Assembly (NCBI GenBank): GCA_009602725.1
Contig: WELB01000011.1
Span: 1,039,146-1,059,145, forward strand
DNA: 20,000 nucleotides
Origin: Spirogloea muscicola
Lineage: Eukaryota
Direction: 5' to 3'
Shown here: piece by piece, positions 1-19,062 of the stretch
Layout: each line of letters starts with the position of its first letter
How positions within the stretch are numbered: position 1 is the stretch's first letter
Program-made: the position numbers and the translations under genes
The notes under the pieces: generated by a model
Database searches by the model: none
What the model saw: the letters and a program-made list of their open reading frames with translations, nothing else
What the model was told of the DNA's origin: nothing

Positions 1-100
1 ATGCATGCTTGCATTCCCTTGTACTGCAGCATTGAGTCAATGTCTGTAGCTTAGCACCCTGCCGATGCCGTATGACCTCCCACTTTGCATCCTGGTGCAG

Positions 101-265
101 TCAATTGCCACTTCTGCAAAGGACAAGCCCAGCAAATTGCACCGCAGGAAACATCAGATTACATCACTGTATTTTGACATGCGTCAGAAGGAAATGGAGG
201 TCGCTGAGCAAAGGGCCAGAGGTCACATGACCAAGGCCCAAACGCATGCCAAATATGGCTGGTGA
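101..265 (+). CDS. PRCC: Terminal exon of a PRCC-family protein (proline-rich mitotic checkpoint regulator / spliceosome-associated); upstream exons lie outside the window
   Basis: Acceptor tggtgcag|TCA at 100/101. The exon reads SIATSAKDKPSKLHRRKHQITSLYFDMRQKEMEVAEQRARGHMTKAQTHAKYGW*, matching the PRCC C-terminal signature RKHQI..L...KYG[WF]*. Confidence 0.85.
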   Translation, partial: SIATSAKDKPSKLHRRKHQITSLYFDMRQKEMEVAEQRARGHMTKAQTHAKYGW

Positions 266-375
266 TTGCAGTATTTCTGCTGCACCTTTTTAGTGCATGC
301 ATCATCTCAAGCTCAGCCTCCTCTGTCTCCCTTTGCTAGCTTCTGGGGGCACGTGACTGGTCCAGAGATGGGCTA

Positions 376-2107
376 TTAATCAAGACAAGATCTAAATTTT
401 TCTTGCGCTGCATTGAAGACGACCTGAAAAATAGCGAGACAGAAGCTCGTAAAGGCTGTGAACTGAGTTGTGTAAACATCTTGTGAGAGCAATTTTAAGA
501 CAGTGTGTGTAGTAAGAGAGGTCAGCTGCACTAGCTGTCACTAGATGTACTTGGAGATGATTCCATGGACATATAAACGACGAAGCAGTTGTGCTGCTAA
601 ACAAGTACCTTCAGAGGAACATGATATTTCCTAGCCAATTTTGCACAGTCCTCATACTCGGGATGGGCAGTCATCTGCACAGGAGTGATTTCTCTTAGAG
701 ACCAGTCATGCTTGCCAAGCACCTGTGCTAGAAGTCATATGGATGGGCCAGTGTCTATCAGGCATTACATAATGGATAGGTATTTGGCACCAGCTTGCCA
801 CCAAGTGATGCAGCTTTCACGGAAACTGGTCCCCACTCTGTGTTGACAGCTACCATTGACCTTTGCAGGCTCACTCGTTCGCACTGATTGATGCGTACAC
901 CAAGGCTAGTGGTCTCCTGCTCAAATGCATGCTGCTGAACGTTAGGCTCTGCACAAAAGTCACTGCATCAGCTAACAGCTGAGGCAAGGCTATTTGGACT
1001 TGCCTGCAGGATGATCTGCAGAAGATCATCAACCTGGCCTTTCCTACACAAAACGTTTAGTATCATTCCAGGTCGTCCTTTCTTCATCAAAGCCTGATTC
1101 ATGGAAAATCTCAAATTGATCAATGCAACGGAACATGCTAATTAAACTCCTATCGACTTCTCCTCAGCAATGTGACTCTGTGAGAGTGAGCAGGGCATTT
1201 TGCTTGCTGCATTGATTGCTATTGGTCGAGCTGCAGTCACGTCCTCAAGTTGCCGTTGCTTGAAAGTCGGTGTCATCCACAATTGCATCTCACCTGTACA
1301 ATCCATGCATCCAAGGCCCCAGCTGCAAGAAGCTGCTCCGTGGTGTATGCCATCTACACCTCCACAGACGAGCTTTGGTGAGTAGCATCAGAGAGTCATA
1401 ATTGCTGCACATGATGATGCTCCAGTGCACTGGACGAAGTATGTCACGAAGTATGTCAATTTTAAGTTTGCGCTCTGCTTGATCAATCTCATCGACAGCA
1501 AGTATGACTAACATAATGGCCTACCTACCAGTTGAGGCGACATGTCGTCTACATTTGTCTCCAGGGTCACAAGGTGCTCCCTCACGACTCCGTCCCCCCG
1601 GTGGTCCTCCTGCACGAGCCAATCTGACCCCATGCACAAATGAGACATCAGCATGCGCGCCACGGATGCATGCAAAGTCGCTTGTGAAGACAAGACGACA
1701 AAGCTGTAACCTCTAGGCAAGGTACTAAGCCAGTGCCGCAGAGATGTATCTCACAGTAGACATACCATAGCTTATACTCGCCCTTCTGCTTTCGCCGGCA
1801 GCCAAGGCTTGATCAAGCTGGGGAGGTGCCCTACCTCGGCTGCATGCTTGGACGCTCTTGCGTTGACCGTGCAGTCTCCATTTTTAAGGATCCTTGACGT
1901 CCGGCAATCCGAAGAGCGATATCCAGAGCCAGAAGCTGACCGCAGTCGCCGCCAGCCAGTTGCAGTCCCTCTCAAACAGTACCGCCGGCTCAAACGGTAC
2001 CGCATGGAGCTGGTTTCGGCTGCAGCTCTTAGCGGCCCGACTGGCAGGCGTTTGGCGCAGCCAAGAACGGCGAGCTCCGCGGGCGATGCGACGGAGGTAG
2101 CCGCCAT
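376..2107 (-). CDS. larC: LarC C-terminal domain (LarC2-like, nickel-pincer nucleotide cofactor nickel insertase family) protein with a transit-peptide-like N-terminus; 7 exons, 247 aa
   Basis: Exons 2107-1835, 1609-1529, 1353-1294, 1093-1004, 916-791, 674-609 and 423-376 splice in frame. After exon 1 they read EDHRGDGVVREHLVTLETNVDDMSPQL|MAYTTEQLLAAGALDAWIVQ|ALMKKGRPGMILNVLCRKGQVDDLLQIILQ|ETTSLGVRINQCERVSLQRSMVAVNTEWGPVSVKAASLGGKL|MTAHPEYEDCAKLARKYHVPLK|VVFNAAQEKFRSCLD*. The LarC motifs ETNxDD, GALD, MKKGRPG, ETTxLGVR, TxxGxVxVK and PEYEDC occur in order. Exon 1 (91 aa) is rich in Ala/Ser/Arg and poor in acidic residues. Confidence 0.88.
917..1003 (-). other. GC-AG intron (intron 4 of the LarC2-like gene)
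   Basis: Donor CAG|GCAAGT and acceptor ttgagcag|GAG. The splice joins IILQ to ETTSLGVR in frame, as the LarC motif order requires. Confidence 0.75.
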
Positions 2108-2203
2108 GATCGGGGCCCAGCCTCTGGAGGCAGCCCTCCGCCTGCTGGCCTGCGGGCTGCGACGAGGTGATGGAGAGCGGCGTCTCGGCGGGGCTGTCTT
2201 GAG

Positions 2204-2436
2204 TCTCTGACCTGAGGCTGCTTAGCAGGAAGAGAAAGTGCTCGCCCATTGAGATTAGGGGCTGGAAAAGCCAGCCCAAAAAAATCAACAAGGGGGTTAC
2301 TGAGTGATCCGTAGCTGCTTTGTTTCTTTGTGTGCTTGTTTTTCTTAGCGCTTCCCCTGGCCCCCTTCTCGTCTTTTGTTGATTCTTATATGGGCTGGCT
2401 TTTCCAGCCCCTATTCTCAATGGGCGAGCACTTTCT
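2204..2436 (+). mobile_element. 3'-terminal fragment of a CRE-like retrotransposon (family B), interrupted by an inverted copy of its own terminus
   Basis: TCTGACCTGAGGCTGCTTAGCAGG...GGTTACTGAG encodes SDLRLLSRGY*, as at 9943-9976. Bases 2295-2436 are the reverse complement of about 19069-19206. Arms 2233-2291 and 2376-2436 are inverted repeats. Confidence 0.7.
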
Positions 2437-2570
2437 TTGTCGGGGAGCAGTCTCAGGGACCAGGCCCGCAGAAGCCACGTAGATTACTTTCGTGCACTTA
2501 GCGCCAGTCTTCATACCCCAATCCTCAATGGGCGAGCCCTTCTTCTTATACAGTTGTTTGGGGACGAGAA

Positions 2571-2673
2571 CAGTGACGAGACGAGATGAGAGACGACGAG
2601 CGGGGCAACGTCCGGCTTGGTGGCTGCGACGAGAGGAGACGAGACGAGCGGGGGCACGTCCCGCTTGGTGGCT
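2571..2673. repeat. GACGA-rich tract with a 48-bp-period tandem duplication upstream of the aldolase ATG
   Basis: GACGAGCGGGGCAACGTCCGGCTTGGTGGCT (2595-2625) versus GACGAGCGGGGGCACGTCCCGCTTGGTGGCT (2643-2673). Confidence 0.75.
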
Positions 2674-2771
2674 CTGCCTTACTGTTCGACTGACTGCCCG
2701 GCAACGTGCTATTTGGACAACACCGCGGGCCGGCTCGGGTTTCGGCTGGCGGCGCGCCCCTCCCGACCGCC

Positions 2772-5451
2772 ATGGCTGGCCTCGCCAGTGCGACCAGGCT
2801 GCAGGTAAGGCAGCCATCGAGCCACCCCGTCGGCAACAGCGAGAGTCAACTCGGCTCCGCTGCTCGCTATGCAGCTTGACGATGTGTCAGGCGGAGCTCT
2901 CTGCCCTCTGACGGGCCTTCTTAAAAGGCCACGCGCACTGCATTCTGACGAGACCTTGTGTGGCAAAGACCGCAAGCATGCCATCAAGCCCCACACTCAC
3001 ACTCACGTAAGCTAAGCTGCAGAGCGCAGCTACTGACACTGGGAGGTGGCTTGCCCGGCCGACGCAGGATGTTGTGTCCAACGCAAGGAGGCTTGCCACC
3101 CCCGGCAAAGGCATATTGGCCAGTGACGAAACCACTGGCACGGTTGGCAAGCGGCTCAAGTCTGTAGGGCTGGAGAACACTGAAGAGAACCGTCGGGCAT
3201 ATCGAGAGGTCAAAGGTCCTCAGCGCCTTAGTAGTTAGCATTCATACTCACTAACTGTGAGTGCAGAGTCAGGCATTCACCTGCCGCAGCGTGACATCCG
3301 TTAATATTTCTGTACTTGCCTATGAGGACTTTCCTTCCTGCTACTGAGGCTCCAGTTTTATTGCTCACTTCACACAGACACTTATGTCCAGGCTAAATAG
3401 GGCTCATGCCTACTGCAGGTTCTGTACACTACTCCAGGCATAGGTGCATACCTCAATGGTGTTATTATCTTCACAGAGACCTTGCTCCAGTCTACTAAGG
3501 CGGGGATCCCCTTTCCAGATGTGCTTCAAGGCCAGGGTATACTTGTCGGCGTCAAGGTGGACTTGGTGAGGCTCCGGTATGCTCACAAGCTCCCTTGTAA
3601 TCGTGACGTACTTTGTTCTTTCTGTCCTGACATGCTCTGAGGCAATAGCTGTCTTTTCTCAAGGCGCAGCTCCATGCCTTGTCAGGCCTCTGCTGGATAG
3701 GAGCTGAACTGTCTCAACGTCGCCAGGGTCTGGTGGCAATTGCAGGTACTGAGGGGGAAACAGTGAGCCAAGGTCTTGACGGCTTGAGCACGAGGTGCCA
3801 GCAATACTACAACAAGGTCCACTATTCCTGAGCTACAGTCCTCTCACATTGGCAAAAGGCGTGCGTCTGAGGATAGAGTTCCTTCTGTCCTACAAGGTCA
3901 TGCTTACATAGTAGCTGCCTCTTCTGACAAAAAGCTAAATCCTGCAAGTGCAGGGTGCAAGATTTGCAAAATGGAGAGAGGTTATTGCCATCAAAGAGCA
4001 CTGCCCTTCCAAGCTTGCTCTCAAGCTTGCATCCAGTGCACTTGTCCGCTATGCTTCCATTTGCCAGCAGGAGGGACTGGTCCCCATTGTGAGTAGCTAA
4101 TTCTCATGCCTGGAAATGTCCTGCTGCTTGTTGCTGAACGTACACTTGTGGCATTGCCTGCTTGAATGATTCTAATGTGGAGCCTTGAAACAAACAGGGC
4201 ACAAGGTTTGCAATGCTGACATTTGCCGTGAAGGTTGTGGTTGGCTTGGATGACACCAATCATGGCCCACACCTAGGTCGAGGTAAGCCTTCTAGCACTT
4301 CTTGTTGCCAGTTGTACTTATGGTGTAGTGGTTTTGAAAGTCTTGACTCATGCAAGATCCTCTTGACCACTTTGTTGCAGCCGGAGATACTCATCGACGG
4401 CACTCATTCAGCTGAAAAGAGCGCGGAGGTTGCAGAACTTGTGCTCGCAGAAGTGTTCTCTGCACTTTCGTGTCATCATGTCTGCCTTGAAGGCATCCTC
4501 TTGAAGGTACTGCAATTAGCTACTGCAGTACACCTTCTAGATTTGCTGGTTGACAAGTCAACAGCAGCAGAACTCTCTGGAAGCATTGTGGCACTCTATG
4601 ACTTGACTCTGACACCACTCCGTACGTGATGAGCAGCCCCAGATGGTGCTACCAGGCTTTGACAGTGACAAGAAAGCCACACGAGAAGAGTGCGCTCAGC
4701 TCACAATAAGGACTTTACAGCGCGGCCTGCCAGTTGCTGTTCCTGGGATCATGTTCTTGTCTGGTGGTCTGTCTGAGGAGGTCAGTGGAGTGGCTCGTAT
4801 ATCATCTCCCAATTGTGGTACAAGCATCTGCATCCACTCGCGTTTGAGCCTGCATAGTCTCTGTTAAGTCCATAGTGGTTGATTTGAAGTGACTCTTTGC
4901 CAACTCTGCTTGCCCTTTGCAACAGGAGGCCACGGAGCAGCTGAATGAGCTCAACGTCATCAAGAAATTAATTAGTGACAAAGTGCCCTGGACTCTATCC
5001 TTTTCGTTTGGCAGGGCACTACAGGTTTGTATGCCAACAAGCTGAGACTGGCTTAAGTAGCGCTGGGCTTTTGAATTGAGACTGGCTTAAGTTGCAGTGG
5101 GCTTTTGAATCGAGATAGTTTGCAGAGGTATTTGCTATGCATTACCTGCAAAAGGGCTGCTATTTTATGCTCAACTTGATGCATGCACATCCTCTTCTCT
5201 TGGCACCCTTCAGAAGTGCTGACAGTGAAATTATTGCAATCCGTCTTGTGTAGGCCAGCATCTTAAGAATCTGGGCTGGGGATGCGAGCCAGGTGGAAGC
5301 AGCCCAAGCCATGGCAGGGGCACTGGCCAGGGTGAATGCAATGGCGACGCTTGGCAATTACGTAGGACCTCACCCATCAAAGTTGACGGGAGACCTTCGG
5401 GAGAGCTTCCGGGGATGGCGAAGTGTTACAGAAGTGGCAGACAGCAAGTAA
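2772..5451 (+). CDS. FBA: Class I fructose-bisphosphate aldolase; 11 exons, 416 aa (first two exons less certain)
   Basis: Exons 2772-2804, 2875-3006, 3068-3208, 3419-3565, 3727-3816, 3954-4088, 4277-4282, 4381-4506, 4637-4780, 4926-5024 and 5254-5451, all GT-AG. Motifs: [69 protein letters not shown] (Schiff-base Lys), [24 protein letters not shown]. Confidence 0.95.
4277..4282 (+). other. 6-nt microexon (GTC GAG = Val-Glu) of the aldolase gene
   Basis: acctag|GTCGAG|gtaagc. It supplies exactly the VE missing between GLVPI (exon ends 4088) and PEILIDG (exon starts 4381). Confidence 0.85.
5044..5115. repeat. 34-bp tandem duplication in the last aldolase intron
   Basis: GAGACTGGCTTAAGTAGCGCTGGGCTTTTGAATT followed by GAGACTGGCTTAAGTTGCAGTGGGCTTTTGAATC. 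Confidence 0.8.
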
Positions 5452-5945
5452 TGTGGAATCTGTCACCATTGCTTTGCTACTGTTGGGCTCCAAGACAGCA
5501 ATCTGACACTTTTCATCAGCTGCTTCACGCCATCTTGTGGGTGTCGTCATGAAGAAACCAAAGCCACAGGCTCTCACATACTCGAAAGCTGCTGCCTCAT
5601 CATCTGACGGCTGACTAGCAGCATAGATGACCAGCCAAAGCACGAGATACCATACCACATGTGTTGTGCTGGCAGACAGTTCTGCAGTTCATGCAGCAAC
5701 TCAAAGGAGCCGATTTTGGGGACAGGGCCTAGTAACCCACTAGCACATATCTGCTTCCCCTGCAATCCCCTTCCTAAGGACATATTCAATCGTCACCAAC
5801 AGATTACACAGAGAGCTTGCAAGAAGTCGCTGTGCGTCACCGCACAATCAGGCGATGATACTGCAGACAGCTCAAGCAGATGCAAGTGGAGGAGTGCTGG
5901 TGTGAGCACGCTGCAAAGGTGGAAGAGGGCCCAAGTTTGCCTCCC

Positions 5946-8752
5946 TCAGCTGTCGCTCATGAGGTCGTCAAGGCTAAACTCCTCTTCTGCAGGTGGCTGC
6001 CCGTCCTTGCCGTCCCACGGCTCCGTCTCTTCGACGGGCGGAACAACCTCCACAGACTCGGAGCCGCGCCCTCCCAGCCCAGCCTGCTGCACAAAGTCGC
6101 TGAACACGTGGACACGTGGACACAGAGATGTCTCTGCATCAGCGAAGACTGTCATGACCATGGCCAAAGTTGACTATTTGTGTAAGGCAAACAAGAAGAC
6201 TTGTTATGGAGCCTCCCTCTGCATCCTGACAAAGACATTGCACTTATATCTGAATGAAAAGTCTTGCTGTTATTGAGGCTGTCAATCTGGCAAGTGGACC
6301 CTTCAGAATTGCAGTAGTCAAAAGCAATGTGGTTGTGTCGGGCGAGGCTTATACTCACATAATCGGCTGCTTGTCAAAATAACCCTTGAAGGGGACAATA
6401 AGCTGCTTCTTGACGCTTAGCGCCACGAGCGCAGGGTACCCGTAACCGCCCACGCCCACGGCCTTCTCAAGTGCCGCCTGCTTGCTGGCTTCAGCCCACA
6501 CATAGCTGCTTGGCCGCCCCACCCAGTCTACTGGTCAGGCCAGCTTGATGGAGTGCACAATTTCCAGCATAAAGATGTGCAAGGTGGTTAAGCTGGACGT
6601 TGGCAGAACCATATGAGAAAGTCTAAGACAAGGAGACTGCACCTGTACGCACTCTTCTTGAAGTGCTCACTGACTTCCTTGAGGATACCAAGGTATTTGT
6701 TGCGCCCCTCAGCTCCAGTGTCCAGGATGTTTGGGAGGAAAGCCAGGAAGCAGATGGTGGACTTTGCACAATACTGGTCCAAGACATTCTGAAGGCACAT
6801 GCCGATAAGCACTGTAAGTCAACCACTGAGACCAACTGGGCTGCCAGCACAACTAGCATAGTCTGTTGAGTGACGTCAACCTCTGCTGCACAGATGTAGT
6901 GCTTTACTCGTCATTTCAGCTCACCTGATTGCTGAGCTCCAGCACCTCAGGAGCAACTGCGTTCGCTTCTAAGTGGTCCTGAGCAAAGCTCTCAATTGCT
7001 GATGCAGATCTTGGACCTTCATAAGGAACAGGGCTCTCCTTGTCGGCGCCAAAGACCAGGATGGTGGGAAAGCCCTTGATACCATACTTCCTTGCTAAAG
7101 TCTGCAAACATCAATCCAATTTGTGCAACCAAAAACAGTGAGAAACTTGCAGACATGCACTTTGCAGACTGCCACCAGCGTGCAGTCTTGACGAGTGTAC
7201 TGATCGCCATGCGGTCCAACGTCCAAGTCAGCTGATGCTGTCTATCCTGGTCAGATGCAAGTGAGAAGTACTAGCCGTCTCTGAGGTGCTAATGCCCTGA
7301 CAGTCATACGGCTGACAAAGAGAAAATGCATCATACTTCTTCCACAGTACAGTCCACCTCCCCCAGCTTGACTTGCCCCTGCAGGGACTTGGCGGCACGC
7401 TTCCATTCTGGCGCAAGTTTCTTGCAGTGCCCACACCTGTCAAACGCCTGCAGTTTTTTGTCACCTTCAACAAGTTCAATGTGCAGGTGGCCACTCAAAG
7501 TAGGCCGAGCTGAGTCCATGGTCGAAGTCAGATAAATGTGGCCCTTAGCGTCTGATTGCATGCGGCTCGAGATCAGGGGAGGAGAGCGTAAGCAGCCATA
7601 CCATGGAGCAAAGAACTCCACCAGCCAGAGATCGGTGCTCTTCAATACTTGCTCCTCGAAGTTGCTGCTCGTAAGAGTCACAGACCCACTCTTCTCACCT
7701 GAGCTGCTGCCGCCCTTCCCACTGCCTCCCGTGGCCTTCCCGGACAGTCTTGCCTGTACAAGGCTCTTCACCTGCACCAGATACCCAAAGAAGCGTAAGA
7801 GCAGTGACGTCAAGAGTCACTAAGCCAACACATGTCTCATTAAAGCTCACACTGTGCAATGCAAAGTCATTGTCCAAAGCTGATGTCAAAAAAGGTTGTC
7901 AAACCCCTGTCCTCTCTGACTTGAAAATCGCACCAAAACCTGGGTCAACTGTGATATGACTTTGAGCAGCCTCTAGCTCCTACCTGGCTGAGCGCAAAGT
8001 CAACAATGGCTTTGGCATCTCTGGGCCCCTGGTAGTCGCTCAGGCCCTTCTTGCCCGGGCTGAAATATTTGATGGTCGGAAAGCCCTGGATGCCATGGTC
8101 CTGCCATGGGCGTACACTCGAAAGCAAAAATCAAAAGTCACATCTGAAATTCACAAGCACAAAATGGTATTGCTGGTGGAGCTCTCTCTCTGACCAGCAG
8201 ATTTGATCACAGAAATTGGTCTGAATCTGGGGTTTTGCCGACGCGCAGCAGACACGACGGCGGCGCTCACGAAGACGCGAGATAGTGCCCAATCACCTGT
8301 GCCAGGGACTGGTGGGCGTCGCAATCCGCGGCGGCGACAGTGGCAACGCCCTTGAGGGCCTTGGCGGCCTGCTCCCAGGCGGGCGCCAGGTTCTTGCAGT
8401 GCCCGCACCACGGCGCGAAGAACTCCACCAACACCACCTTATTGCTTTCTAGCACCTATTGGTAAGGCAGCGACGGGCGTCTCAGGCGGCTGTGCTGCTC
8501 AGGCCATGAGCGTTGCAGCGGCTGGAGCTCGCTGGCAGTGAAGAAGCGGTCAGCTCGCCCGACACCGTTGTCCAGGCAATGGGGATTGCGCAGGATAGAC
8601 CGTCGCACCTTGGCGATGAAGTTGGCGGGCGAGAGCTGCAGCACCGCCGAGTCCGGGCCGTAAAGCGCCAGCGCCGGGCCAGCGAGCGCCGCCAGGAGGA
8701 CGACCGCAGCCAGCCATCGGCTGGCGGCGACGGCGGCCGCCGCCGCCGCCAT
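5946..8752 (-). CDS. PDIA6: Protein disulfide isomerase, PDIA6/P5 (plant PDIL2-2/2-3) type, a-a'-b architecture; 9 exons, 437 aa
   Basis: Exons 8752-8609, 8455-8297, 8100-7984, 7771-7602, 7436-7337, 7101-6925, 6788-6643, 6505-6359 and 6099-5946. It has a signal peptide ([20 protein letters not shown]), two [12 protein letters not shown] thioredoxin sites, GFPTI motifs, a Gly/Ser linker, [24 protein letters not shown] and C-terminal EPWDGKDG...[13 protein letters not shown]. Confidence 0.95.
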
Positions 8753-9334
8753 GTCCGACTATGCGCCCGCACTAGCTGGCGGGTCGCCGCCTCCGAGGCT
8801 GGCACGCAGTCGGCTGGCCCGCAGGTCGCGGCTGACGGCTCGGCGAGCTGATTCGCTCCAGGTCGAGCGCCTTGGCCCGAATGCGGCGAAGCCGGAGAGC
8901 AACCAGCGGCACGGCGGCGGCTTTGGCGGCGGCGGTGGTGGCGGGCGCTCGCAGGCCCCGGGATTGGCGGCGTGACTGGCGGTGCCGAACGGGGGAAACG
9001 GGGTATCTATCCGCGACGCCGAGACGGCGACTCGGTTCAACGGAGAAGCCGCTTTCTGCCCACTCAGCCAACTGTGGTTGAGAGACGGCGGAGGCCGAAC
9101 CAACGGCCACTCGCAATGGTGGTGACTGATGGAACAAGGTCCAACAGAAGAGAAAGTGGCTTTCCCCCAACAACAAAGCCTCGTTAGCAGCCACAAGCTG
9201 CTAACCCAAGAGGAAGAAGGCGCGTCCAATCTTGAGAGGAAGCGCGGCCGGTTTGACTGGTGGCTGGGAGAGCAGTGGCCGTGAGAGGCCCAGCCAAAAG
9301 AGAGGAAATGCTTGCATTCCCCACTACAGAGGCG

Positions 9335-9405
9335 AAAAAGCTCGCCCTTAGAAGATAGGGGCTAGCAGAAGCCAGCCAAAAAAGAATGGGAAAAAACAGA
9401 GCCCC
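9335..9405 (-). mobile_element. Isolated 3' terminus of a family-B retrotransposon fragment
   Basis: The reverse complement reads GGCTGGCTTCTGCTAGCCCCTATCTTCTAAGGGCGAGCTTTTTC, homologous to the terminus at 2392-2436. Confidence 0.6.
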
Positions 9406-9639
9406 CCACCACGTCACTGGGCGGCCGTGATTGGTCACTGTTCGGAGGCAGCGGCGTTGATCGACCGTAGCCGTGGCACGATCGCTGCCGTCGGCGAGGC
9501 CGTGCCCCCATACCAACATGCAGTCGGAGCGGCTTTACTGTCTGGTGTTCTGATTCACTTGTGGGGACTAGAGTCTTCTATTGTATTTTCCGATTTGTTA
9601 CCTTTGCTCCTGTTTCAACTTTGACGTCCTCTTACATAC

Positions 9640-10295
9640 TGTCCTGGCTTACTTTGGCCTCCTCTGCGGCGTCGTGTTTCAGCCTCTTGCAGCGAGCTCA
9701 GGCTCATGCTTTGCACCAGAAAGCTGGTCGAGCTTTAGCTGGTCATGCCACGCCATTTCCCGCCGCTACCATGGGGAGCCGGTGGATTTCCATATTGCAG
9801 GCTCGCTCGCACAGGTGTATCGAATGCGCCTGCCCGTCTGGCTGCCGAGGTCCATGGCTCGCGCGTTGCATCTGCGTGCCGGTTGTGCCCTCACTGCAGC
9901 CTCTGGCTCTGGCCTGGGGACCCGCTACCAGGAGCCCAGTTTCTCCGACCTGCGGCTGCTTAGCAGGGGTTACTGAGTTTCGCGTTCCGTCGACTTGTGG
10001 CAAGCTATGTAAATTCTCATGTCGGTATCTTTTTGGCTCTTTTTATTCTGTCCATTCTTTTAGGGCTGGCCTCTGCCAACCCCTCTTCGCCATGGGCGCG
10101 CAATTTCTTGTCAATTTAGCTGTGGCACAAGGGCTTGTCAGTCGCCGTCCAGTATTTGGGCATCGATAAGCGACCTCTACGTGCTGACTCGTGGTTATTG
10201 AGCGGGTCAGCTTAGCAGCAGGTGATAAATATCTGTCGATGTGCTTTGCCTTTGTACTTGGCCACCCAGGCCCTCATCAATACACACTCGTTTCT
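9640..10295 (+). mobile_element. Degenerate family-A CRE-like retrotransposon 3' fragment with a nested family-B fragment (about 9766-10142)
   Basis: 9640-9765 encodes LQRAQAHALHQKAGRALAG and 10148-10201 resumes with SSIWASISDLYVLTRGY*, both homologous to about 18140-18276. The insert encodes ARALHLRAG...FSDLRLLSRGY* and carries its own 3' UTR. Confidence 0.75.
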
Positions 10296-10602
10296 ATTAA
10301 TGGCCTTACACTGAAGGAGATGTTTCTCTTCGGGGATCCCGAGGCCCTAAGAAGAATGCGGCTGCTGATATCAAAAGAGCGGCTGTAAAAGCCAGCCAGT
10401 TGCTTACAGAGGGTGTTCATGACTACGTATAACCCGCTACTAATTCCGCTTCTGCTTCTGGTAGCGGAGCCACACGCTAGGCCGAAGCGAGCTTAGTAAC
10501 CCCGTGTCGGCAGTAGTAGAACCAGATGAGCTGGGGTGAGGAAGAGCGGGCCCGCTGCGCAAGCCAGAGGCTGCTGCAAGAGCGCGACCGGCTCAGCGGA
10601 GG

Positions 10603-10629
10603 CCCTAAACCGCAAACCCTAACCCTAAA
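10603..10629 (+). promoter_or_regulatory. Telo-box / short interstitial telomere-like motifs upstream of DUS1
   Basis: CCCTAAACCGCAAACCCTAACCCTAAA contains AAACCCTAA, which in plants is common near the starts of translation-machinery genes. Confidence 0.5.
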
Positions 10630-10659
10630 GACGGTGCGACTGCACAGCACCTGTCCCCA

Positions 10660-10661
10660 CG

Positions 10662-10692
<31 letters not shown>

Positions 10693-10697
10693 CGGCG
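10660..10697. repeat. (GGC)n trinucleotide repeat next to the assembly gap
   Basis: About 12 CGG/GGC units read directly from the sequence. Confidence 0.85.
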
Positions 10698-12755
10698 CGC
10701 TGCCTGCAGCGGCGCAGCCCGCNNNNNNNNNNNNNNNNNNNNNNNNNNNNNNNNNNNNNNNNNNNNNNCGGAGCCGCGGGCGACGGCGGGGCCGTGCGGG
10801 AGCGCCGCGCGGCGGCGGCGTGGGAGCACTTTTGGCGGCTGGGGTCGCCGGCGTGGCACGTGGCGCCCATGGTGGACCAGTCGGAGCTGCCGTTCCGGAT
10901 GCTGTGCCGCCGCCACGGCGCGCACGCCGCCTACACGCCCATGCTCCACTCCCGCCTCTTTGCCAGCGACGCCAAGTACCGCCGCGCCGAGTTCTCCACC
11001 TGCCCCGTTAGCCCCCTGCCCCATTGCTTGCCTACCCCAGCTGCCGGCCTCGTCGCAGAGGCCTCCAGAGGGGCTCCTGAGCCGGGCTTTGCTACCAGCG
11101 GCCAGCGGCCACAGAGCGGTCTCTGTCTCAGAGTACCATGTTCGTTTGCCAGGCTGCCCATTGAAGCCTTGGTCAATGGTACACGACACAGTCATGGCTG
11201 CTCTCGCGGCAACCGCCTCGGCTGGTCACTGCGGCCAGAGTGACCAAGTCCGAGGTTCCACGCGGTGCTGGTCCTTGTGCAGGAGGATCGGCCGCTGTTT
11301 GTGCAGTTCTGCGCCAACGATCCGCAGACGCTGCTGGCTGCAGCCAAGCACGTCGAGAACGACTGCGACTACATTGACATCAATCTTGGGTATATTGATA
11401 TTCTATAGCCGCTTCCCGAGGGATGTGTGTATTGTGCCAGCAATGGCTACTATAGCAGCAAGAAAAGTACAAGGTGATTAGATTAGAAGCATAGGAAGAG
11501 CCTAAGCAATGGGCAGGGTGAGGCTCGTCACGTGTGACAGACACCTACTTGTAGCGGCCATCCAGGCATGCAGCTGAAGATCTTCTGTCCTGCATGTCAC
11601 TCTGAAAGCTCCACGCTTGACAAGGGGTCTTGCACCTTCTGCCGCAGGTGCCCACAGAGAATTGCCAAGCGGGGCTACTACGGCGCATTCCTGATGGACA
11701 ACATGCCCCTCGTCAGGTCGCTGGTGGAGACCTTGGCAGCGGGCGTGAGCACGCCCGTCTCCTGCAAGATCCGCCTCTTCCCCCAGCTCGAGGACACAAT
11801 CGCCTACGCCAAGATGCTGGAGGACGCTGGGTGCTCACTGCTGGCTGTGCATGGCCGGACGCGGGACCAGAAGTGCGGGCGGGCCGTGAGGGCCGACTGG
11901 CCGGCAATCCACGCTGTGCGGCAGGCCGTGTCCATCCCCGTGCTCGCCAACGGCAATGTGCGGTGGCTGGAGGATGCAGTCGAGTGCATGCGCTTCACAG
12001 GCGCGCAGGGCGTGATGTCTGCGGAGTCACTCCTGAGCAATCCAGCACTCTTCGCAGGACACCGCATGCCTGCCGAGAGCGGCAGCAGCATTGAGAGCGT
12101 GCTTCTGCAGGAAGGCCGGGATACACGGCCACGGACCCCTTGTGAGGCCTCTGCAACCTTGGCGGCTGCAGCTGAGACTCGGGTGCTCGACCGTGAGCCC
12201 TGCAAAGACCAGAAGGCTGATGTCTCAGCAGCGGTCGAGGTCGTCGCAAGTCAAGTCGAAGGAGGTGAGCACGAGCTGGATGGCAGTGAAAAGAACGGCA
12301 GCGGAGCTGGCGAGGCTGCTCCTGACCAGCTGTCATTGATGGCGGAGTACCTGGACCTGTGCAACGCCTATCCCGTGCCTATGCGCATGATTCGCGCGCA
12401 TGTCCACAAGCTCCTAGGTTCATGGTTCCGTGTGCACACGGATCTGCGTGAGCGGCTGAACCGGGAGCATAAGCCGTCGCTGCCCTGGCTGCACTCGATT
12501 GTGGTGGAGATTCGCAAGAGAAACTCCAGAGTTCCATCGTTGAGGCCCTTAAGCGAGAAAATGCTGGGCAACAGTGCCGCGCCGGGGACTTTGGGCACCG
12601 TCGAGCACCCTGGAGCAACTCCCTGCCCCAAGGGGACCCAGACGGACGCCAGACCGCAACAGTCATTTGAGTTTCCTTCAAAGGAAGGGCTCATCTGTGG
12701 GGACGTGCTTGGCAGCAGCAGTGCGTCAGCTGCAGCAGTCACAACAGTTTCTTAG
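10686..12755 (+). CDS. DUS1: tRNA-dihydrouridine(16/17) synthase, DUS1-like; 3 visible exons, true start codon uncertain (probably in or before the N gap)
   Basis: Exons ?-11006, 11283-11389 and 11648-12755. Motifs: [21 protein letters not shown]...[46 protein letters not shown] (catalytic Cys), [34 protein letters not shown]. Confidence 0.92.
10723..10768. other. Assembly gap (46 N)
   Basis: Run of N characters inside the GC-rich first exon of DUS1. Confidence 1.
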
Positions 12756-15061: not shown

Positions 15062-15812
15062 AAAAAAAAAAAAAAAAAAATCGTGTATTAGAAAGAAATG
15101 TAGGCCAAATGGCCAGGTACAAAGGCAAGCACATTTAAAAATCTACATAACCTACAGCAGATTGACCCGCTCAATAACCACGGGTCAAAACATAAAGGTC
15201 ACTACTCGATGCATGAATTCTAGATGCCAGGAACGGAGCCCTTATGCCACCTACTAGAGCTCGCCCAGCTTTCTGGTGCAAGGCACTAGCCTGAGCACGC
15301 TGCAAACAGGCCGAAACTCGACGTCGCAAGAGCGACAGATATGCAGCTGGCAAGCCCATCTCAGCCGGAAACACATCTGCGCGTCGAGTGTAGCCTAGAT
15401 TGGCAATGTTTTGAAGCAGAGTGTGGAAGCGAGGACCCAGACAGCCAAAGATGTCGATTGCAGCTGGCAGGAGTTGATCGCATTGGGGGTAATCGGAGTA
15501 ATGCCGCAGTTTTCTTTGCTCTGCTCCGCCCACTGCGTGCCCAGCAATGTGTGTTGATGCTGGGCCTTTATATGCCTCCGTAACAACAACGTCGACCAGG
15601 GCCCGTGGTCCTCCACCAGGTTGCACGCCCACAATGTCAAGTGTGCGGCGATGATGACGTCCCTGGGCGTCCGTGGTGATAGGCATGATATTGTTGACTT
15701 CCACGACCGCACGGTAGCCGGCGTCGCCCATCAAGCCCGCCAGGGCATCGCGAAGGAGGTTGTGAATGCCCACCACTTCTGGTCCAGTGGGGCATCTCAG
15801 CATGTGAGTGGC
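15062..15812 (-). mobile_element. 5'-truncated CRE-like non-LTR retrotransposon (family A): open restriction-like endonuclease segment, 3' UTR and an adjoining T19 tract
   Basis: ORF 15171-15803 reads HMLRC...HNLLRDAL...RRTLDIV...DVVVTE...EQRKLRHY...LLPAAIDIFGCLG...LRRRVSACLQRAQA...LTRGY* (end of the CCHC knuckle plus a PD-(D/E)xK-like RLE). It is colinear with 17639-18365 in inverse orientation. Confidence 0.85.
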
Positions 15813-16749: not shown

Positions 16750-18365
16750 CCTGCCAACCTTCAGCTCCCCCACGGCTGTCAGACCCTGCCAATGGGCTGG
16801 CCATCCTCAAGGTCCCCTTCGGTACACCAGCTCACGTGGCGGTGGACTTGCGGGAACGCCTTCAAAAACACCTCGCCTTTCTCCCTTCCCTTCCCCTCCT
16901 TGCGGACACGCAGCTGGCGTTGGCCATCCTCACCCGCTGCATCGGCCAACGGGCTTGCTATCTGCAACGGACAGTCGCCCCATTGGGCATGGTGGCGGAG
17001 CTCTACAAGGAATATGATGACTCCCTTCAGCAGTCCCTGGCATCCCTACTACATTCTTCATCTTTCCCCTCAGCTTCAGCTTCCCTCCAGGCCTCCCTCC
17101 CTACAAGCATAGGCGGCCTTGGCTGCCGGTCGTTGGAGCAGACGGCGCAAGCAGCCTTCCTGGGCTGCTGTCACCAGATCGCCTCCCTGCTCCCCATGCG
17201 CTTCCCTTGCCTACACGACCCTGTGCGCAATGTGGAGGAAGGCTCCTTCCCCTTCCAAGCGGATCTGAGGAGCATCCGCGACTCAGCCATCAGCTCTTCC
17301 CCTCTCTCCAAACCCTTCTCACGCCATTCTCCGCCCTCGCCCAAGCTTCTGATAGAGGGGCACAATCCAGACTGGTTACGGCAGTGGAAGACGAACGCCG
17401 CAGAAGGTTGAGGAGGCTGCCAGAGATTCAGAACAATTCAAGGAGCTTGGCAAGACTTACTTCTCTAGCCACACCTGGTGCCACTGACTGGATCACCTCT
17501 CACCCCGTCGCCAACGCCTTCAGCATCAGCTCCGAGGCTTTTCGGACATCGCTTCAACTCTTCCTCGGCCTCCCACCTAAGTGCCTGATTGGGGTGCGCC
17601 AGTGCGAGTGCGGCTTCCGTGCAGAGGGTGCTGTGCTCGCCACTCACATGCTGAGGTGCCCCACTGGACCAGAAGTGGTGGGCATTCACAACCTCCTTCG
17701 CGATGCCCTGGCGGGCTTGATGCGCGACGCCGTCTACCGAGCGGTCGTGGAAGTCAACAATATCATGCCTATCACCACGGACGCCCAGGACGTCATCATC
17801 GCCGCACACTTGACATTGTGGGCGTGCAACCTGGTGGAGGACCACGGGCCCTGGTCGACGTTGTTGTTACGGAGGTATATAAGGGCCCAGCATCGACACA
17901 CATCGCTGGGCATGCAGTGGGCGGTGCAGAACAATTAAATTGCGGCACTCCTCCAAATACCCCCAATGCGATCAGCTCCTGCCAGCGGCAATCGACATCA
18001 ATGGCTGTCTGGGTCCTCGTTTCCACACTGCTTCAAAACATTGCCAATCTAGGCTACACTCGACGTGCAGATGTGTTCCCGGCTGAGATGGGCTTGCCAG
18101 GTGCATATCTGTCGCTCTTGCGACGACGAGTTTCGGCCTGTTTGCAGCGTGCTCAGGCCAGTGCCTTGCACCAGAAAGCTGGGCGAGCTCTAGTTGGTGG
18201 CAGAAGGGCTCCGTTTCTGGCATCTAGTATTCATGCATTGATAAGTGACCTTTATGTTTTGACCCGTAGTTATTGAGCGGGTCAATCTGCTGTAGGATAT
18301 GTAGATCTTTAGATGTGCTTGCCTTTGTACTTTGCCATTTGGCCTACATTTCTTTCTTATACACG
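16750..18365 (+). mobile_element. 5'-truncated, frameshifted CRE-like non-LTR retrotransposon (family A): RT C-terminus/thumb, zinc knuckle, RLE endonuclease and 3' UTR
   Basis: GLAILKVPFG, YLQRT, QASLPTSIGGLG, ARLTSL...GATDWI, CECG...HMLRC...HNLLRD and the RLE motifs are spread over three frames. Frameshifts lie near 17290, 17787, 17938 and 18027; the last three are visible by comparison with the minus-strand copy. Confidence 0.85.
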
Positions 18366-18379
18366 TAATTTATATTTAC

Positions 18380-18535: not shown

Positions 18536-18658
18536 TAAGATGCAGAGACGGGCGCGGTGCGCATGAAATGAGAGGGTGGTCAGTTTAAGCCCAGTACACG
18601 ATTCAGGCCAAACGCTAGTGCAATCAGTGGGGCTAGTGAGTAATACAGAGTGAAAATG

Positions 18659-18859
18659 CGTGTGTTTGAAACAGACGAAGGCCAAATGGCAAGTACAAAG
18701 GCAAGCACATCTTAAGAGCTACATAAGAGCTGCAGCAGATTGACCCGCTCAGTAACCACGGGTCAAAACATAAAGGTCGCTAAAAGATGCCTGAATACTA
18801 GATTTCAAATACAAAGCCCTTCTGCCACCAACTAGAGCTCGCCCAGCTTTCTGGTGCAA
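18659..18859 (-). mobile_element. Short 3' fragment of family A
   Basis: The reverse complement encodes LHQKAGRALVGGRRA...SDLYVLTRGY* followed by the UTR with GTGCTTGCCTTTGTACTTGCCATTTGGCC, as at about 18167-18345. Confidence 0.8.
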
Positions 18860-19062
18860 AGAGAGAAGACGCGTGGGGCGCATGAAATGAAATGGAGGCC
18901 AGTTCAGGCCGATACATTGTTCAGACAGAGTCTAGGGCAAACTAAACAGGGCTACATAATACGAAGACCTAAACTAAGGTGCCTAAGCTGACCTCTGAAC
19001 CCACTTGCAAAGAGGGAGTTTGAGGATTGAATCGGGCGAGCGAGGAGAAGGCATCCAGGAAT

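Follow-up and report, generated by a model that had tools for sequence, protein, structure and literature searches.

A spliced, LarC2-only gene with an organelle-type leader in Spirogloea muscicola and a green-algal DUF111 family

Introduction

The closest described systems are the LarC enzymes of nickel-pincer cofactor synthesis. In the Moorella thermoacetica LarC report (PMC13510736), LarC2 binds CTP between its subunits and P2TMN is CMPylated there, and nickel insertion falls to LarC1, which carries a His cluster; the sole LarC2 role described is to bind CTP and CMPylate on behalf of LarC1. Deleting, shortening, stiffening or replacing the linker of the Moorella enzyme lowered activity to <10% (PMC13510736). 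Frameshifting in DUF111 genes has been documented (PMC3711429). LarB, LarE and LarC of Synechocystis make the cofactor and most cyanobacteria are without LarA (PMC11796402), client enzymes other than LarA exist (PMC13524815), and lar genes occur in unicellular eukaryotes, where LarAH15 of Phytophthora is active (PMC11770544). In a 2020 review, urease is the one nickel enzyme listed for eukaryotes (PMC7435645). Nickel-pincer genes in eukaryotes are therefore not new; the addition made here is a LarC2-only architecture in green algae. Members of this leader-bearing family stand in databases as DUF111 and are apparently undescribed: the literature covered, largely outside subscription journals, gave no description of a green-algal or plastid LarC2, and the portion of supplementary files covered from algal papers and PMC13524815 contained no DUF111, LarB or LarE identifiers.

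Results

Gene structure and LarC2 identity

The gene lies on the minus strand of a 20-kb stretch of Spirogloea muscicola DNA (the window). Its seven exons, all in phase 0, splice in frame as originally predicted to encode 247 aa (91 + 156) with a single terminal stop, and the five motifs expected of LarC2 are present in the order claimed. Exon 1 (1835..2107) contains the start codon and a 91-aa Ala/Arg/Ser-rich leader, predicted to target an organelle, in an open frame ending at a GT donor; the following GT-AG, phase 0 intron 1 (1610..1834) is called from the sequence. Exon 2 (1529..1609) begins the LarC2 domain with the ETNVDD motif (PF01969 positions 240-258) and is joined in contigs to exon 3 (1294..1353; joint 1353/1529), which encodes GALD (260-278) and has the introns on both sides skipped in contigs. 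MKKGRPG is encoded by exon 4 (1004..1093; 281-308, E 1.5e-6), after which comes an 87-nt intron with a GC donor that is also skipped. Exon 5 (791..916) encodes ETTSLGVR and the green-family CERVS...WG signature (310-345, E 9.9e-9) and matches PDB 6bwo, exon 6 (609..674) encodes PEYEDC (352-372) between contig skips of 116 and 185 nt, and exon 7 (376..423), read from the sequence and bordered by the 185-nt skip, supplies the last helix and the TAA stop. The six introns measure 225, 175, 200, 87, 116 and 185 nt.

Family profiles agree with the LarC assignment that had been made from motifs. Among the six exons scanned, exons 2-6 match Pfam PF01969 collinearly over positions 240-372 of 375, exons 2-5 match the NCBIfam LarC2 model NF052512 over positions 2-106 of 118, and exon 1 has no match in Pfam or NCBIfam. 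A LarC2 profile of 139 non-green representatives gives the spliced protein 195 bits, versus 5.8 bits for the best of 200 shuffles, and all six green relatives scored with NF052512 reach 131-152 bits (cut-off 50). Across the 139 representatives, 31 columns reach a conservation of 85% or more, and the window protein retains every one. Among them are D112 and E216, aligned with D284 and E387 of Lactiplantibacillus plantarum LarC; we take the latter, which are acidic residues in the NxDD and PEY motifs, to be CTP-site residues. Full retention of the conserved positions fits unchanged LarC2 chemistry, and on alignment the protein looks active. Other searches added little: exon 5 alone as a query returned seven candidates, none significant, no plasmid match and no usable hit in the Atlas, an Atlas search with the closest relative, P0306, returned bacterial PF01969 clusters only, and Rfam gave 0 matches.

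Splicing was assessed in Logan contigs of run X1, the sole run containing the LarC2 stretch; that the run is RNA is probable but a guess, RNA not being on its record. Five of the six introns (2-6) are skipped in these contigs at the predicted sites (175, 200, 87, 116 and 185 nt), so the predicted junctions stand for these introns, whereas intron 1 is unbridged and exon 1 uncovered. One contig reads through intron 6 unspliced, indicating that DNA or pre-mRNA is also in the run. Another ends at 1611, where spliced and unspliced paths of intron 1 would fork, which gives a weak hint of that junction, and a further contig ends at 425, matching the fork of the confirmed intron 6. Three differences from the window fall in coding exons, two of them silent and one Lys to Arg. 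Run X1 also contains a second form of the last junction (413-607), with 8 letters differing at the start of exon 7, and further differences across the LarC2 region; together these suggest a second allele or strain. The LarC2 gene is real, spliced and eukaryotic.

A green LarC2-only family

Of 270 proteins compared with the spliced product, the nine that match it best are all LarC2-only. LarC2-only relatives occur in Mesostigma viride (284 aa), Closterium (169 aa), Chlorokybus (209 aa) and Cymbomonas (181 aa), and a profile of the nine proteins found four more members, including one cluster with Micromonas commoda XP_002507230.1. Identity between the window protein and the nearest row is 58%. 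The window protein groups with Closterium, P0306 and Mesostigma at 99/92, a placement that makes a streptophyte alga the likely source. A signature drawn post hoc from the alignment already inspected, C.R[VI][SA]x10-14WG, is present in all 12 green rows (eight of which, the window included, were assigned green by similarity) and absent from the 139 other representatives and the 80 cyanobacterial loci compared. Sequence comparison also suggests that some intron positions are common to the window gene and its green relatives: the ends of a Closterium fragment (P0275) coincide with the sites of introns 2 and 5, and at the intron-4 site a Micromonas protein (P0423) carries 20 additional aa that are absent from the MMETSP transcript P0304. 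The LarC2-only family, the shared intron sites and the tree grouping together point to a half-gene present in early green plants, which likely predates the divergence of prasinophytes and streptophytes.

The 7,995 candidates scored yielded no family member from land plants or core chlorophytes, but several of the query rows are also missing from that list, which therefore does not indicate absence. Of 80 loci from a metagenome scan, L096 alone was of the green type, and viral contigs gave none. A moss DUF111-DJ-1 fusion, PpGlyIII6 (Pp3s30_990V3.1.p, 512 aa; PMC8170915), was set aside: it lies on an unplaced scaffold, is without the green signature, reads like merged bacterial genes and, judged by eye, is likely a contaminant.

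LarC2 without LarC1

A LarC1 profile built from 116 full-length proteins matched neither the window protein, nor 20 green relatives, nor the six frames of the window (best E 2.2), and scored 341 and 306 bits on the controls P0001 and P0143. TIGR00299, which models LarC1, likewise had no match in any of six green proteins. The window protein does not have the full-length LarC architecture, in which LarC1 with its His cluster and acidic pocket lies on the same chain. That LarC1 is not encoded here had been argued from the 225-nt length of intron 1, and the six-frame result extends this to the whole 20-kb window.

Structural comparison was made through the P0306 model (mean pLDDT 89.8). Its best matches are the LarC2 structures 6bwo (Z 16.0, rmsd 2.3, 144 aligned) and 6bwq. 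Three copies of residues 24-180 scored 0.80 as an assembly, versus 0.00 for the best control, a mark passed in the benchmark by 20 of 30 solved homo-pairs and 1 of 23 single chains; the pass may reflect memory of a solved like complex (6bwo). Contacts in the trimer runs agree at ≥95%, with pLDDT ≥88. A LarC2 fold and a homo-oligomer are thus predicted for this relative, not for the window protein itself. Residues 27-116 of the model also match CutA, GlnK/PII, SbtB and PstA (Z ~9.6-10.3, rmsd ~2, ~80-90 aligned).

This resemblance favours the main rival to a split LarC, a stand-alone LarC2 in which LarC1 (and LarB and LarE) have been lost and the remaining domain acts in an organelle, either regulating through CTP binding in the manner of PII/CutA proteins or transferring CMP to another substrate. 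Such a function would also agree with the family data, since no full-length protein with the green signature was found by profile among the 7,995 candidates (the nine LarC2-only proteins score 225-267 bits and the next protein 204), and with the existence of a short, unfused archaeal homologue, MK0293 (186 aa). The importance of the linker in the fused Moorella enzyme (PMC13510736) points the same way. However, the PII-like fold is common to all LarC2 and a common fold shows no function, the complete retention of conserved positions fits unchanged chemistry, and the window neighbours point to no partner or substrate. We regard a stand-alone role as possible, though on balance rather unlikely.

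Our preferred reading is that LarC is split and that this gene supplies the half that uses CTP, which would enter an organelle and act together with a putative, separately encoded LarC1. From the described division of labour, LarC2 alone would be unable to finish the cofactor. A split enzyme with LarC1 supplied in trans is suggested by the conserved positions, all of which are kept, and by the near-constant company of LarC1 elsewhere. At prokaryotic LarC2 loci, LarC1 is fused in 149 of 160 cases, adjacent in four and not seen in seven (153/160 together), and it is present in 29 of the 30 cyanobacterial genomes that have a LarC2 match (61 genomes compared). In viral contigs, 4 of 14 loci contain a LarC1 motif, and in all four LarC2 is fused to it or lies next to it. 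Since nearly all of the prokaryotic co-occurrence is fusion or adjacency, it transfers poorly to a eukaryote. The Moorella linker result indicates that tethering of LarC1 to LarC2 matters and also counts against a split enzyme. Our confidence in this reading falls a little short of even.

Pairing of the two halves is not universal in cyanobacteria. LarC1 stands alone in frames of 247-256 aa in 8 of 37 cyanobacterial matches (G010, G019, G022, G028, G025, G031, G061 and G064), with no LarC2 genome-wide in the four of four tested, which may be incomplete genomes, and none within 2.7 kb. These LarC1-alone genomes mirror the green LarC2-only case and count against obligatory pairing; the halves can be uncoupled. 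These genomes are small (1.8-2.2 Mb), GC is 0.33-0.37 in the four loci read (L231-L234), and frames of ~304-310 and 203-259 aa come after LarC1. Other architectures were also seen. One protein of 469 aa (P0198) has an N-terminal region joined to LarC2 that looks to us like LarB. Three LarC proteins with a eukaryote-like sequence style (P0200, P0152 and P0182) carry LarC1 sequence; one tree places P0182 with three LarC2-only rows of the green set (99/98) and others do not, and if green it would represent a fused LarC form within the green lineage.

Another way to dispense with LarC1 is a LarB/LarE pathway that ends at, or diverts from, the CMP-linked intermediate to give a nickel-free or dinucleotide cofactor. 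Two reports offer precedents, namely accumulation of the CMPylated intermediate under nickel limitation (PMC13510736) and a dinucleotide pincer variant, NPAD (PMC13524815). We consider such a pathway improbable.

The leader and the 5' end

The first 60 aa of the leader contain 11 positive and 2 negative residues, and leader composition is 19% Ser/Thr, 16% Ala, 19% Arg/Lys and 7% acidic. An Ala/Ser/Arg-rich, acid-poor composition fits an organelle-targeting peptide, in keeping with the original prediction of a transit-type leader. The leader likely sends the protein into an organelle, probably the plastid, and its composition may also suit a mitochondrial presequence. Basic, acid-poor long leaders are also present in the Mesostigma, Chlorokybus and Micromonas proteins and in the transcript-like locus L096; the Closterium models P0133 and P0274 have leaders of only 8-9 residues, and that of P0306 is short and non-basic. 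Leaders do not align with one another: that of the window protein finds no match in the Mesostigma protein (E 19).

As exon 1 is uncovered by contigs, the leader call rests on its ATG context, the canonical donor, the CpG-rich 5' profile and the leaders of relatives. Exon 1 has GC 0.62 and CpG o/e 1.07, resembling the 5' ends of neighbouring genes, and its ATG context matches those of two of them. Intron 1 contains an in-frame Met from which the open frame continues into exon 2, and a leaderless form could arise there. The 5' end might then have been mis-called, the true start being this Met and the product a cytosolic LarC2 of ~165-170 aa, similar in size to the Closterium models (169-170 aa) and compatible with the lack of contig cover over exon 1. 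However, the first exon of the neighbouring aldolase gene also has depth 0 in run X1 (2701-3000), no contig reaches into intron 1 past 1611, and both the neighbour-like ATG context and the leaders in relatives support exon 1. A mis-called start is therefore doubtful, and we retain the leader-bearing model. That the gene is a bacterial contaminant or a pseudogene, or that the window hides LarC1 exons upstream of it, is scarcely credible and already largely refuted by the five introns spliced in run X1 contigs, which uphold the claim of a eukaryotic gene, by allele differences in coding sequence that are silent in two of three cases and otherwise Lys to Arg, and by the blank LarC1 profile across the six window frames.

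Surroundings of the gene

The LarC2 gene lies head to head with a class I fructose-bisphosphate aldolase gene (2771-5450, plus strand), with ~660 nt between the start codons. The aldolase gene is followed by a thioredoxin-domain, PDI-like gene (8752-5940, minus strand) and a dihydrouridine synthase gene (10868-12755, plus strand); with these neighbours, the window contains no lar cluster. Several introns of the aldolase and PDI-like genes are skipped in run X1 contigs. Over 1-12000, CpG o/e is high at the 5' ends of genes (~0.9-1.2) and low within gene bodies (~0.1-0.6), the pattern that gene-body methylation would be expected to leave.

Two kinds of repeat were noted. A small element with 51-nt inverted arms (2230-2440) sits between the divergent LarC2 and aldolase start codons, has related copies at 9351, 18383 and 19083 and a high summed contig depth, and is likely a MITE-like repeat. 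Inverted arms of ~740 nt (15070-15812 and 17639-18377), 89-97% complementary, enclose 1.8 kb of broken reading frames with no Pfam match, and partial copies of this element occur at 9687-10209 and 18653-18861. Its Cys/His pattern resembles what we take to be the end of a non-LTR retrotransposon.

Origin

Tree rows were a subset (71, 43 or 50 of at least 579 cores) picked by clustering and closeness, over 144 columns, too few to fix the origin. Cyanobacterial LarC2 sequences form a clade at 100/98 with the green rows outside it. A sister position of green and cyanobacterial rows is not rejected (AU p 0.13 and 0.73), nor is one for four streptophyte rows with cyanobacteria (0.33 and 0.44); green rows placed inside the cyanobacteria with a basal pair gave 0.055, and green rows with Acidobacteria-type rows 0.28. 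The proposed cyanobacterial link may be a sister relationship; in the free trees the green rows are not nested among the cyanobacteria. FastTree places nine green rows with cyanobacteria at 93, a grouping without support in IQ-TREE. Green rows P0181, P0207 and P0307, with Chlorokybus P0130, separate from the rest in free trees, and green monophyly is not rejected (p 0.56 and 0.18). Outside the green set, the highest-scoring match to the window core reaches 148 bits; among 80 named cyanobacterial loci the top score is 119 bits. Row L201, which branches deepest among the cyanobacteria, has DVW and xWG features in common with the green proteins, and the CERVS motif occurs in 0 of 110 cyanobacterial sequences.

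Discussion

If the gene encodes half of a split LarC, the leader would be cleaved after import into an organelle, probably the plastid, and the mature protein would form a LarC2 ring binding CTP between subunits. LarC2 would then add CMP to P2TMN, the sulfur-containing precursor presumably made by LarB and LarE, and a separately encoded, putative LarC1 would insert nickel to give the nickel-pincer cofactor. A more specific version, in which both LarC halves are imported for nickel-pincer synthesis in the chloroplast, were inherited from the cyanobacterial endosymbiont and serve the same non-LarA client as is presumed in cyanobacteria, is unlikely in our estimation. Were it true, an organometallic nickel cofactor would join plastid biochemistry.

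The family is of use for several questions. Cyanobacteria make the cofactor for an enzyme yet to be named (PMC11796402), and LarC2 from prasinophytes to streptophytes provides a eukaryotic handle on that enzyme: candidate clients are genes common to cyanobacteria and LarC2-bearing algae and missing in algae without LarC2. Green LarC2 is also a natural test of LarC working without the linker reported as essential. If LarC1, LarB and LarE prove absent, the result would be the first LarC2 function outside cofactor synthesis.

Compared with the known systems, the window protein is closest in kind to L. plantarum LarC2 (6bwo/6bwq/6bwr) and Moorella thermoacetica LarC (12bi-12bl; PMC13510736), with which it shares family HMM matches and conserved positions and, as modelled for P0306, a predicted fold and self-assembly; it differs in that the LarC1 domain, the His cluster and the linker are all missing. 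L. plantarum joins two LarC frames by ribosomal frameshift, whereas the window gene is nuclear and spliced with a targeting-type leader. Cyanobacterial LarC (Synechocystis P72725; PMC11796402) offers a similar phototroph context without a known client; it is mostly a LarC1-LarC2 fusion, in contrast to the LarC2-only window and green proteins. The oomycete and protist nickel-pincer pathway (Phytophthora LarAH15; PMC11770544) is likewise a case of eukaryotes with lar genes, but there a LarA client is known, and the non-green, eukaryote-like LarCs P0200, P0152 and P0182 carry LarC1. With the PII-like superfamily the family has in common a ferredoxin-like, trimer-forming domain (Z ~10); identity is 5-20% and LarC2 has an extra C-terminal domain, so that the resemblance is one of fold only. 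The same family as the window protein comprises the green, LarC2-only DUF111 proteins of Micromonas commoda (XP_002507230.1, UniRef100_C1FE18), Cymbomonas (KAK3236048.1), Closterium (GJP34591.1), Mesostigma (Mv23046) and Chlorokybus (Chrsp12S01984), which are annotated just as hypothetical or DUF111.
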